From Promethearchaeota archaeon (GTDB lineage Archaea; Asgardarchaeota; Lokiarchaeia; Sigyniarchaeales; SOKP01): 64,000 bases of DNA. Where the stretch lies: contig JBHLOC010000016.1 of the NCBI GenBank assembly GCA_048940925.1, positions 1-64,000 on the forward strand. Direction: 5' to 3'. Within the stretch, counting starts at the first letter, position 1. Each line of letters begins with the position of its first letter. The notes under the pieces were generated by a model. That model was not told the origin of the DNA. It made no database searches and saw only the letters and a program-made list of their open reading frames with translations. A program made the position numbers and the translations under genes. This document shows positions 1 to 10,076 of the stretch, piece by piece.

Positions 1-350
1 TGACAAGGTATTGCCGGGCAGCCACGCGCCAACGGATAAGTGCTGAAAGCATCTAAGCACGAAGCCGGACCCGAAAATAGTCAGCCAATCTCGATAATAG
101 AGGTTATGGAGTGTATTATGTATTTAGGTTGGTGTGGTTGGTAAGACGTCCCTGTGTAAGTCGTGATCTAACCGAAAAAAAGCATCATAATCTAAATGGA
201 TGGGACATGAAATAACGAGAATAGGGCGTGGTGACGCGAACTATGTATACGAGACGAGTGCACCCGTAAAAGACGGGGTTGGTGAGGTAGGGGTGTACGT
301 AGGGAGCTTTCGGGCGACCTATTTAGCCTGCTACTCTCAACAGCACGAGT
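1..350 (+). rRNA. rrl: 23S (LSU) rRNA, 3' end (domain VI), truncated by window start; includes an ~165-nt expansion at the H98/ES39 position
   Basis: Conserved GGATAAGTGCTGAAAGCATCTAAGCACGAAGCC (34-66). Archaeal-type terminal segment GAGTGCACCCGTAAAAGACGGGGTTGGTGAGGTAGGGGTGTACG...CGACCTATTTAGCCTGCTACTCTCAACAGCACGAG (256-349). GC content is far above the background. 3' end is approximate. Confidence 0.93.
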
Positions 351-460
351 GTGTGGTGTTGAAAGAGGAATACAAGGTTCAGGCTTAGAGTCTGAGGGTT
401 TGTTTACCAAATTGGTAAAATTTAAGACAAGTAAAAAAGGAGTATGTTCTTGGGCGTCGA

Positions 461-7697: not shown

Positions 7698-7908
7698 TTT
7701 ATCAATACACTATTGTATTTTATTATCTTTAATAATTTATAGAAATTAATTAATTTTATTATTTCTTAATTCACTTAATAGTTATTCAAATAGTTAAATC
7801 TTAAAATCTTCCTTTTGCTTCTTTAGAAATAATTTTAATAGCTCAAATAAATTATACATATTAATTATCGCTAAAATCTTTTATTTGTAAGGAGAATTGC
7901 GGTACCTC

Positions 7909-8388
7909 ATGGAAGAGAATAATAAAAAAAAGGATGAATTTAAAAAAGTGAATATTGAGGAAAATGATGGTTTAAAAATAATCTATGATAAAAATGAATT
8001 AAAAGATAAATTTCCTCATTTAGTTAAAGAAGTCTCTAGCAATCAAAGATCATTCAAAATTGATTCTGTTAGGATGGAAATTGAAAATACAAATGAAAAA
8101 AATTCTCTAACTTCTAATAACTTTTCCCCTGAAGAATTAATAAACCCTGGAGCAATAGATTTTATTAGAAGATGTACAGCACCTGAAGATGCTCTTGAAA
8201 TATTAAATTTTTTATTAAAAAGAAAAGAATTACCCCTTGCTGATTATTTATCATTGAAACATCAAATATTACAGGAAAATGGATTAATTAAATTAATTAA
8301 TAAATATGGTGGATTTAAAAGACCTGGATTTTATGAAAAAAAATTTGGATCTTTGAGAATAAAAAAAAGTGATAATCAAAAGGAGTAA
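7909..8388 (+). CDS. DUF2095 family protein
   Basis: KFPHLVKE, PGAIDFIRRC..EDALEILNFL, KRPGFY. Start is either ATG 7909 or TTG 7897. Confidence 0.7.
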   Translation: MEENNKKKDEFKKVNIEENDGLKIIYDKNELKDKFPHLVKEVSSNQRSFKIDSVRMEIENTNEKNSLTSNNFSPEELINPGAIDFIRRCTAPEDALEILNFLLKRKELPLADYLSLKHQILQENGLIKLINKYGGFKRPGFYEKKFGSLRIKKSDNQKE

Positions 8389-8444
8389 ATAGTAATTGAC
8401 TTAATTCCTAAAACAAAAAATATTAAAAAAAATTATAATATTAT

Positions 8445-8526
8445 GAGAAGAAATATGATGAGCTTATGACAAACCGAACTAATGCTCTTAGTGATGATTC
8501 TTGTCGCCCCAATCTGATTTTTTCTC
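8445..8526 (+). ncRNA. box C/D guide sRNA (2'-O-methylation); D guide predicted to target 23S G2251 (E. coli numbering)
   Basis: C box ATGATGA 8455-8461, D' CCGA 8474-8477, C' GTGATGA 8491-8497, D CTGA 8514-8517. 9-bp terminal stem GAGAAGAAA/TTTTTTCTC and internal ACTAA/TTAGT hairpin. Intergenic. Confidence 0.82.
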
Positions 8527-8558
8527 TTTAATACTACTGAATGGTTCTCCAAAATTCT

Positions 8559-8816
8559 TTATAAAGTATTTCTTTCTAATTCTTTTTTAAAATTATTTCC
8601 TTTTTCCGTTAGGAAATGCTCTTGTTTAATCTTTTTGATTAGTTGCAAATCAAGTAAGACAGGAATTCTTCCTCTAACGCATTCCATTGGTAATCCTGAA
8701 AATAATTTTATAGTTTCAAAAGTTTTTGCTCCCTTGTCAATTGCAAACAATATCTCAATTCCCATATATCCTAAGAGATTCTTTAAATCTTCGATCGTTT
8801 CCTCTCCATTAAACAT
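8559..8816 (-). CDS. small winged helix-turn-helix protein
   Basis: EILFAIDKGAKTFETIKLFSGLP...LLDLQLI...FLTEKG pattern. Confidence 0.65.
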   Translation of the reverse strand: MFNGEETIEDLKNLLGYMGIEILFAIDKGAKTFETIKLFSGLPMECVRGRIPVLLDLQLIKKIKQEHFLTEKGNNFKKELERNTL

Positions 8817-8906
8817 AATCTGTCAGTAATTACGATTTATACTAAATTAAAATTTTCAAATTTGATTGAAGAGTTGTTAGTTCATATTCTCAGAATTTAT
8901 TTATTT

Positions 8907-10076
8907 TTAATTATTAATTTTTTCAGATTCATTTTTTTTTAACGAGCTTTTAGCTTTTTCAACAGTATTGGTTTCAGATTCTTTTGGCAACAATTTTCTC
9001 ATCCATTCAGGAAAAGCTGTTGTTATTTGTAGATTTGTTTTTAAAACTATATATGTTTCTTTATTATAATTCAATTCTTCAATAACATCATATTTCTTGA
9101 GAAATTCAATATTTTCTACAAATGAGCCAAGTGTTTTTTTGGATAGTAACTTAGGTAATGCATCTTTTGAAATTAAACTATTTCTTAATTCAGAAAGAAC
9201 ATTATATTTCTTTGGATCAGCCATTATTTTAATTAGTGTAAAAGTATCTTCCTTTAATTCTTCATCTGTTTTTTTTTCATATTCACTAAAGTACCCTTGG
9301 ACTTTGGGAAGAAGCAAATCAATTAACTCTGGATAATCATCAATGTATTCTATTACACTATCTGGGGGAATTCTTTCTGCATTTACCTCTTTTAATAAAA
9401 GTACATATTTTTCTACTAATCCGATTTGATTTATAAAAATGAATTGTTTATCTTCTAATGTATTAATTATTTCCTCAAAATTCTTATTAGGAAAATTTTC
9501 AATAAACCATTCTCTGAGCATTTCTAAAGGTATTGGTCCTTTTGATAATTTCTCTAAAGTGTCAAATATATGTTTATCATTTAATAAAATTGCGATTTTC
9601 TCTTCTTCAGTTTTTTCTCTTGTAATATCTAATATAGCCCAATATAGACTCTCCACCCACACTTTTATCAAAGATTCATTTTTTATGATTCTTTCTTTAT
9701 CATCTTCATGATAATTTAAATCATTTATATAAAATGCTGTAAAAATCTCTTCATTTGCTCGTAATCTTTCTGAAAATTCTATACATAAGTCTGATATTTT
9801 TTCTTCTATTTCTGGAGATAATTGCTGATCCACAATTGTAGAAACCATTAATATTTCTTTATTTCCACGAGCCCAATCGGAGTGAATCTCAAAATAATAA
9901 TTTAGAGATCTTAAATTTTCAAAAGAATGAGTGAAAAAACCTTCATTAAACTGTTGATCCATAAAATTGGCTATTTTAACCGATAAATCTTTATCCAATG
10001 AGTCTTTAGGATAAGAATAGACTACTAGTGGTCCAATTTTACGATGAAACCATGATAATGCTACGATTGTCTTCAA
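8907..10076 (-). CDS. longin/uDENN-like (folliculin/SMCR8-like) domain protein with C-terminal winged-helix-like repeats
   Basis: N-terminal WFHRKIGPLVVYSYP strand-GP motif and YFEIHSDWARG motif; TTG start after GGAG. Confidence 0.6.
   Translation of the reverse strand: MKTIVALSWFHRKIGPLVVYSYPKDSLDKDLSVKIANFMDQQFNEGFFTHSFENLRSLNYYFEIHSDWARGNKEILMVSTIVDQQLSPEIEEKISDLCIEFSERLRANEEIFTAFYINDLNYHEDDKERIIKNESLIKVWVESLYWAILDITREKTEEEKIAILLNDKHIFDTLEKLSKGPIPLEMLREWFIENFPNKNFEEIINTLEDKQFIFINQIGLVEKYVLLLKEVNAERIPPDSVIEYIDDYPELIDLLLPKVQGYFSEYEKKTDEELKEDTFTLIKIMADPKKYNVLSELRNSLISKDALPKLLSKKTLGSFVENIEFLKKYDVIEELNYNKETYIVLKTNLQITTAFPEWMRKLLPKESETNTVEKAKSSLKKNESEKINN

Follow-up and report, generated by a model that had tools for sequence, protein, structure and literature searches.

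A conserved box C/D sRNA of an Asgard archaeal order with guides predicted for G2251 and U2460 of the 23S rRNA

The segment at positions 8445-8526 of the forward strand of the window (the whole stretch of 64,000 nucleotides that was analysed, designated contig C63) is very probably a conserved box C/D sRNA, for which the 23S rRNA nucleotides equivalent to Escherichia coli G2251 in the P-loop and U2460 in helix 89 (H89) are the likely methylation targets. The kind of RNA is already known, as are both target sites in archaea and, for G2251, in eukaryotes. What is new is an sRNA family that lies beyond any Rfam model and is conserved across an Asgard order, the predicted assignment of its second guide to U2460, and the predicted joining of G2251 and U2460 guides a second time, on a single RNA of a distant lineage. 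No catalogue of Asgard box C/D sRNAs was found in the literature searched.

The C, D', C' and D boxes, the 9-bp terminal stem and the internal hairpin that an earlier note on this DNA had described were each found at the coordinates listed in Table 1, and C8509 is indeed the fifth base upstream of box D. The terminal stem includes one G-U pair, and a single spacer base precedes box C. The sRNA folds with an energy of -17.7 kcal/mol (z = -2.8). A strict C/D'/C'/D pattern combined with a terminal stem gave two matches in the 4.8-Mb genome and none in the reversed-genome control. The layout had been described as closer to that of a snoRNA; this was borne out for the long terminal stem and for the D spacer (16 nt here, with a family range of 15-18 nt and a canonical length of 12 nt), which alone exceed the compact archaeal layout, but box C through box D spans only 63 nt, and the 12-nt D' spacer fits the archaeal rule of about 12 nt. 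The T-rich 3' strand of the terminal stem is a possible archaeal terminator.

Table 1. Coordinates of the sRNA elements, of the neighbouring genes and of the genes for the proteins of the RNP. Positions without a contig name refer to the window.
Feature	Position	Strand	Remark
DUF2095 gene	7897-8388	+	Upstream neighbour of the sRNA
Terminal stem, 5' strand, GAGAAGAAA	8445-8453	+	Pairs with 8518-8526
Box C, AUGAUGA	8455-8461	+	RUGAUGA conserved
D' guide, GCUUAUGACAAA, 12 nt	8462-8473	+	A8469 is position 5; predicted target H89 U2460
D' box, CCGA (CUGA variant)	8474-8477	+	NNGA in most genera
Internal D'-C' hairpin, ACUAA/UUAGU, 5 bp	8478-8482 with 8488-8492 (span 8478-8492)	+	All 5 pairs covary
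Box C', GUGAUGA	8491-8497	+	Mostly NRAUGA in the family
D spacer, 16 nt	8498-8513	+	Guide GUCGCCCCA at 8503-8511; C8509 is position 5
Box D, CUGA	8514-8517	+	Invariant in aligned members
Terminal stem, 3' strand, TTTTTTCTC (also UUUUUUCUC)	8518-8526	+	Pairs with 8445-8453
Winged-helix (wHTH) gene	8559-8816	-	Convergent neighbour of the sRNA
Nop5 gene	C40:188761-189435		Adjacent to fibrillarin (nop5-fibrillarin operon)
Fibrillarin gene	C40:189555-190220		Adjacent to nop5
L7Ae-family genes, two	C26 and C62		

A search for homologues in Asgard genomes, suggested in the earlier note, revealed a conserved single syntenic copy in 123 of the 151 genomes of the order. The search was performed with covariance model R1, which returned exactly one copy per positive genome (112/131 in family f1, 9/14 in f2, 1/1 in f3 and 0/4 in f4); of 24 genomes sampled from the same genus, at least 22 have a homologue by BLAST. 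At nearly every locus fetched the sRNA lies between the same DUF2095 and wHTH genes. It had also been considered that the boxes might not be conserved in relatives; they are conserved across 16 genera, and in the aligned members the flanks diverge while the boxes and both guide cores stay the same. Box D shows no variation in these members. Box C is RUGAUGA throughout save for four identical sequences of genus g13 (AUGAUGU), box C' has occasional variants in the family (UAUGA, CAUGA and AAGGA), and one subgroup of the genus has a degenerate D' box (GUUA or GCUA).

Both stems show covariation. Taking the terminal stem and hairpin together, 14/14 pairs have changed on both sides, and 88.8% of the cells are paired compared with 35-46% when the partner column was slid as a control; the 88.8% figure comes from an alignment fitted to the covariance model, and the genus MAFFT alignment gives a similar picture. 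For the terminal stem, two-sided changes are present at 9/9 pairs with 84% of the cells paired (33 distinct family members), and in the internal hairpin 98-99% of the cells are paired.

In a pattern scan of public genomes nearly all matches were in MAGs that bear the label Promethearchaeota or Promethearchaeia (Asgard). One exact match (L227; DATKTW010000128.1) is on a contig binned as 'Candidatus Nanopelagicaceae bacterium', which is probably a mis-binned Asgard contig. Model R2, run on about 124 genomes from the phylum's other families, found no member of the sRNA family; the sole R2 match outside the order was in genome G179 of family f18, described below.

The assembly that carries the window comprises 4.8 Mb in 90 contigs with 29.7% G+C. 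The sRNA is situated within a 170-nt gap between two convergent genes. The block consisting of the DUF2095 gene, the sRNA and the convergent wHTH gene together with a 389-aa protein (window 7897-10076) is kept across the family, as seen in loci L003-L025, L049-L078 and L163-L178. In many genomes the sRNA starts just 20-50 nt after the end of the DUF2095 ORF, so that co-transcription or processing from the 3' UTR is possible.

The window opens with the terminal 360 nt of the 23S rRNA. The organism's own 23S is assembled only at positions 16-1422 (contig C31) and 2796-2987 (window 1-360); no P-loop motif in an rRNA context occurs in the whole assembly, and H89 and the middle of the 23S are absent from it, as is the 16S rRNA. 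The earlier note had placed its inferred target outside the window; the target is an inferred one, as described there, but it is missing from the entire assembly and not from the window alone. Because the own P-loop and H89 are unassembled, the target sequences were taken from congeners, using the complete 23S of congener G041 (3464 nt; L045:5956-9419) and partial 23S sequences from many genomes.

The P-loop GGCUGGGGCGGC (written GGCUGGGGCGGCUC) is identical in all 35 of the 35 family f1 genomes with the region recovered, seven of which belong to this genus. The D guide (8503-8511) forms a 9-bp duplex with one G-U pair with the P-loop segment UGGGGCGGC, in which C8509 (position 5) is opposite the second G of GGGG; this G corresponds to G2251 both in our alignment with E. 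coli and in that of Dennis (Dennis 2015, PMC4644070). The complementarity with one G-U pair claimed in the earlier note was retained, but the 10-bp pairing of 8502-8511 was shortened to 9 bp because the P-loop of the congeners continues ...GGCU and not ...GGCA. With -19.4 kcal/mol this duplex is the lowest-energy site for the D guide in the 23S and 16S rRNAs, and its energy was matched by only two of 60 shuffled D guides. Using a mismatch-tolerant score, 181 of 300 shuffled guides equalled the own D guide, and the match alone is not significant. The decisive evidence for the P-loop as the predicted target is comparative. In the sister family f2 the P-loop is changed from GCUGGGG to GGUGGGG (GGUGGGGCGCC; C to G before the U), and every f2 guide has a C at position 2, where the others have A or G. 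C-to-U variants elsewhere in the D guide keep the pairing by wobble. The assignment to G2251 by the N+5 rule thus gained support from the energy of the site, the identity of the target in f1 and the tracking of the f2 change by the guide, and on the basis of the congener 23S it is quite likely that the D guide would direct methylation of the G2251 equivalent.

The D' guide had been left unassigned in the earlier note and was placed here on U2460 of H89 by means of compensatory changes. Its core UGACAA is conserved across the order and is therefore under selection. The core pairs with UUGUCA at the start of H89 (G041 LSU 2703-2708; E. coli 2457-2462 when the 20 nt that follow A2453 are aligned without gaps), which brings A8469, position 5 of the D' guide, opposite U2460. 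In this genus an A.C mismatch at D' position 8 leaves only 6 bp contiguous around the target, with 3-4 further pairs (CUU or CUC with GAG) beyond the mismatch. In genera g12, g15, g16 and g21 a G at position 8 gives 10-11 contiguous pairs and H89 is the top rRNA site; only two of 300 shuffled guides score equally to the variants with 11 contiguous pairs. For the own D' guide, 109 of 300 shuffled guides gave an equal mismatch-tolerant score, which is not significant. In family f3 the guide is CGACGA and the target UCGUCG, so that a core which does not vary elsewhere carries two compensatory changes; where f1 pairs CUU with GAG, in family f2 the target GAG is replaced by AGG or GGG, and the guide CUU by CCU or CCC. 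These changes in f2 and f3, together with the swapped-order sRNA of family f18, led us to assign the orphan D' guide to U2460 of H89, a target that is predicted from the congener 23S and that we consider reasonably probable.

Other candidate targets were rejected. With the D' guide, the anticodon loops of tRNA-Met pair over only 6-7 bp. The genome contains 14 exact 10-mer complements of the D' guide, none of them in a structured RNA, and the single 11-mer complement (C7:29414) is antisense to a 411-aa ORF, is without an Rfam match and is at chance level. The 'CAUAAG' site near the 3' end of the 23S (G041 LSU 3276) offers 7 bp only.

The match in G179 (L179:41-114; G179:C129), from the same phylum, is an unrelated C/D sRNA that carries both guides in reversed order. 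Its guides were checked against the rRNA of congener G188. In the first guide (after box C) 10 bp are formed with the P-loop and position 5 faces G2251; in the second (before box D) 10 bp are formed with H89 and position 5 faces U2460. Guides for the predicted targets G2251 and U2460 would thus be joined on one RNA in two distant lineages.

Short motifs may well occur by chance in a genome of 30% G+C, and no Rfam family was matched at threshold, so that the segment could be thought to consist of chance motifs in AT-rich intergenic DNA, or to be a protein-binding or terminator element rather than a guide RNA. The conservation data already contradict this: a single syntenic copy in 123/151 genomes, boxes and guide cores kept while the flanks diverged, covariation in both stems and no match in the reversed-genome control make such an origin extremely improbable. 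A genuine C/D sRNA with its D guide directed to a different site was also considered, namely the 3'-terminal helix of the 23S (window 308-318; UUUCGGGCGAC). GGGCGAC in this helix (window 312-318) can form seven Watson-Crick pairs with GUCGCCC, the conserved guide U would form a Watson-Crick pair with A, and the mismatch-tolerant score of 9.0 is slightly above the 8.5 obtained for the P-loop. However, the duplex contains a C.C mismatch at position 4, beside the would-be target at the duplex edge, and the P-loop duplex has the lower energy. The stem of the 3'-terminal helix covaries from GACC to GAGG in g14 and g16 and the guide does not follow, whereas the guide does track the P-loop change in f2. 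The helix was rejected as the D target on account of this untracked covariation, and we regard it as very improbable.

The sRNA might instead serve mainly as a chaperone for the folding of domain V, pairing transiently with H80 and H89 while one site or both, the mismatched D' site in particular, would be methylated barely or not at all. The two targets share one domain, with about 210 nt between them, most genera have an interruption in the D' duplex, and the D' box is degenerate in part of the genus; in addition, loss of Gm2251 in E. coli is not known to cause a clear phenotype, which was counted in favour of a chaperone. Such a role has been proposed for dual-guide sRNAs (Dennis 2015, PMC4644070). 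On the other hand, every lineage, and the swapped-order sRNA of f18 as well, keeps the same two nucleotides opposite position 5, a register that is required only for methylation, and the genome encodes fibrillarin. Chaperoning would in any case be compatible with methylation, and as the main function it appears rather unlikely.

For the preferred reading as a methylation guide, the following mechanism is proposed. L7Ae would bind the C/D k-turn closed by the 9-bp terminal stem and also the C'/D' element closed by the internal hairpin, after which Nop5 and fibrillarin would assemble on the sRNA. The D guide (8503-8511) would pair with the P-loop segment UGGGGCGGC, and fibrillarin would methylate the 2'-OH opposite C8509, i.e. 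that of the G2251 equivalent. The D' guide (8462-8473) would pair with the 5' strand of H89 (E. coli 2457-2466), placing U2460 opposite A8469. As both predicted targets are located in domain V, about 210 nt apart, the sRNA may also hold the two segments together during folding of the peptidyl-transferase region.

Metatranscriptome contigs from two runs of one study match exactly the interval 8445-8526 with three differences; their mean depths are 739 and 7. The flanks of these contigs are unlike those of the window, and their source is therefore a relative, for which reason the absence of flank coverage says nothing. The contigs record presence in RNA libraries, where DNA carry-over is possible, and transcript ends and level are beyond their reach. 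In the contig from run X20 a 25-nt stretch borders the 82-nt match on each side, and the two stretches are exact reverse complements of one another; an artefact of assembly is one possible cause, and a long inverted repeat flanking the match in that relative is another.

In three archaea the G2251 equivalent (G2520 in the alignment; an sR7, Mka sR13 and others) is a predicted sRNA target, and U2734 of the alignment is the predicted target of sRNAs labelled T17 and I132 (Dennis 2015, PMC4644070). These labels were read here as Tte sR17 and Iho sR132, and U2734 was mapped to E. coli U2460 from the same alignment. A G2251 guide is less of a novelty than the earlier note implied, since the site had already been predicted as an sRNA target in these three other archaea (PMC4644070). 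The sRNAs of that study and the window RNA are alike in RNA class, RNP, use of the N+5 rule and the same two predicted 23S nucleotides. In the thermophiles the two sites are on separate sRNAs (G2520 with U2544, and U2734 with G2768), whereas here they are on one RNA. In this comparison, made by predicted targets, the window RNA is distinguished by its 9-bp terminal stem, 5-bp D'-C' hairpin and 16-nt D spacer.

In eukaryotes the same G is methylated by means of U31/snR67 (PMC3511168, PMC7600485). The U31, snR67 and plant U31 RNAs (Rfam clan CL00053; Gm2619 in yeast and Gm4166/4196 in human) have the same predicted target nucleotide. The guide UUGUCGCCCCA is that of the Rfam snR67 and U31b consensus sequences, including the G-U wobble, and the snR67 consensus also shares the unpaired A at guide position 2. 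A scan against Rfam gave no family at the gathering threshold and only weak snoRNA matches arising from the boxes and guide; the scores were 23.2 bits for snR67 (threshold 55) and 21 for snoU31b (threshold 37), below those for membership. The alignments to snR67 and U31b had to start at C'. In the consensus of both the P-loop guide follows box C and precedes D', whereas in the window RNA it follows C' and precedes D; the second guide of yeast snR67 is directed to Um2724, and that of the window RNA is predicted for the U2460 equivalent. Since an identical target forces most of the guide identity, the window RNA was not filed in CL00053, and the guide string shared with U31/snR67 could also have arisen by convergence. 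In the dual-guide sRNA for G2251 and U2460 found elsewhere in the phylum, the P-loop guide occupies the eukaryote-like 5' position. RlmB, Pet56 and MRM1 are stand-alone methyltransferases that make the same P-loop Gm in bacteria and mitochondria (PMC7600485); they are protein-only systems without a guide RNA, in contrast to the predicted RNA-guided system of the window.

Hoeppner and Poole raised the question of whether an archaeal counterpart exists for any snoRNA of the LECA (PMC3511168). The present family bears on it through the target and guide string that it has in common with U31/snR67, with homology as a possibility only. That the Asgard sRNA lineage is the archaeal orthologue of the eukaryotic U31/snR67 clan is doubtful, and we give it little weight; if it were true, no individual snoRNA family would have been traced from the LECA into the Asgard archaea before this one. 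For the archaea most closely related to eukaryotes, the analysis predicts that the peptidyl-transferase centre carries 2'-O-methyl groups on two nucleotides, G2251 and U2460. Well over 100 MAGs could be annotated for the sRNA with the two covariance models from this work.

Several minor observations were made on the rRNA sequences and on individual copies. The 23S of G041 comprises 3464 nt compared with the 2987 positions of the archaeal model, leaving approximately 480 nt of insertions, which is consistent with expansion segments. The final ~100 nt of the 23S (window 250-360) recur in the genome as extra partial copies (e.g. G000:C48:1421-1505), and relatives have up to 3-4 copies of them per contig. 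In one congener copy of the sRNA (L009; G022:C44:4493-4582) the hairpin contains a run of N and the D guide GUCACUAUAA replaces GUCGCCCCAA, with loss of the P-loop complementarity; the copy could be in decay, or the assembly could be wrong here. Two more box C/D sRNA candidates are present outside the window in the same genome [G000 C70:57943-58009 (+) and C84:8455-8515 (+)]. The repertoire of box C/D sRNAs in this genome looks small. In the C70 candidate the D' box is a canonical CUGA and the terminal stem measures 12 bp; long stems of this kind may be typical of the organism.
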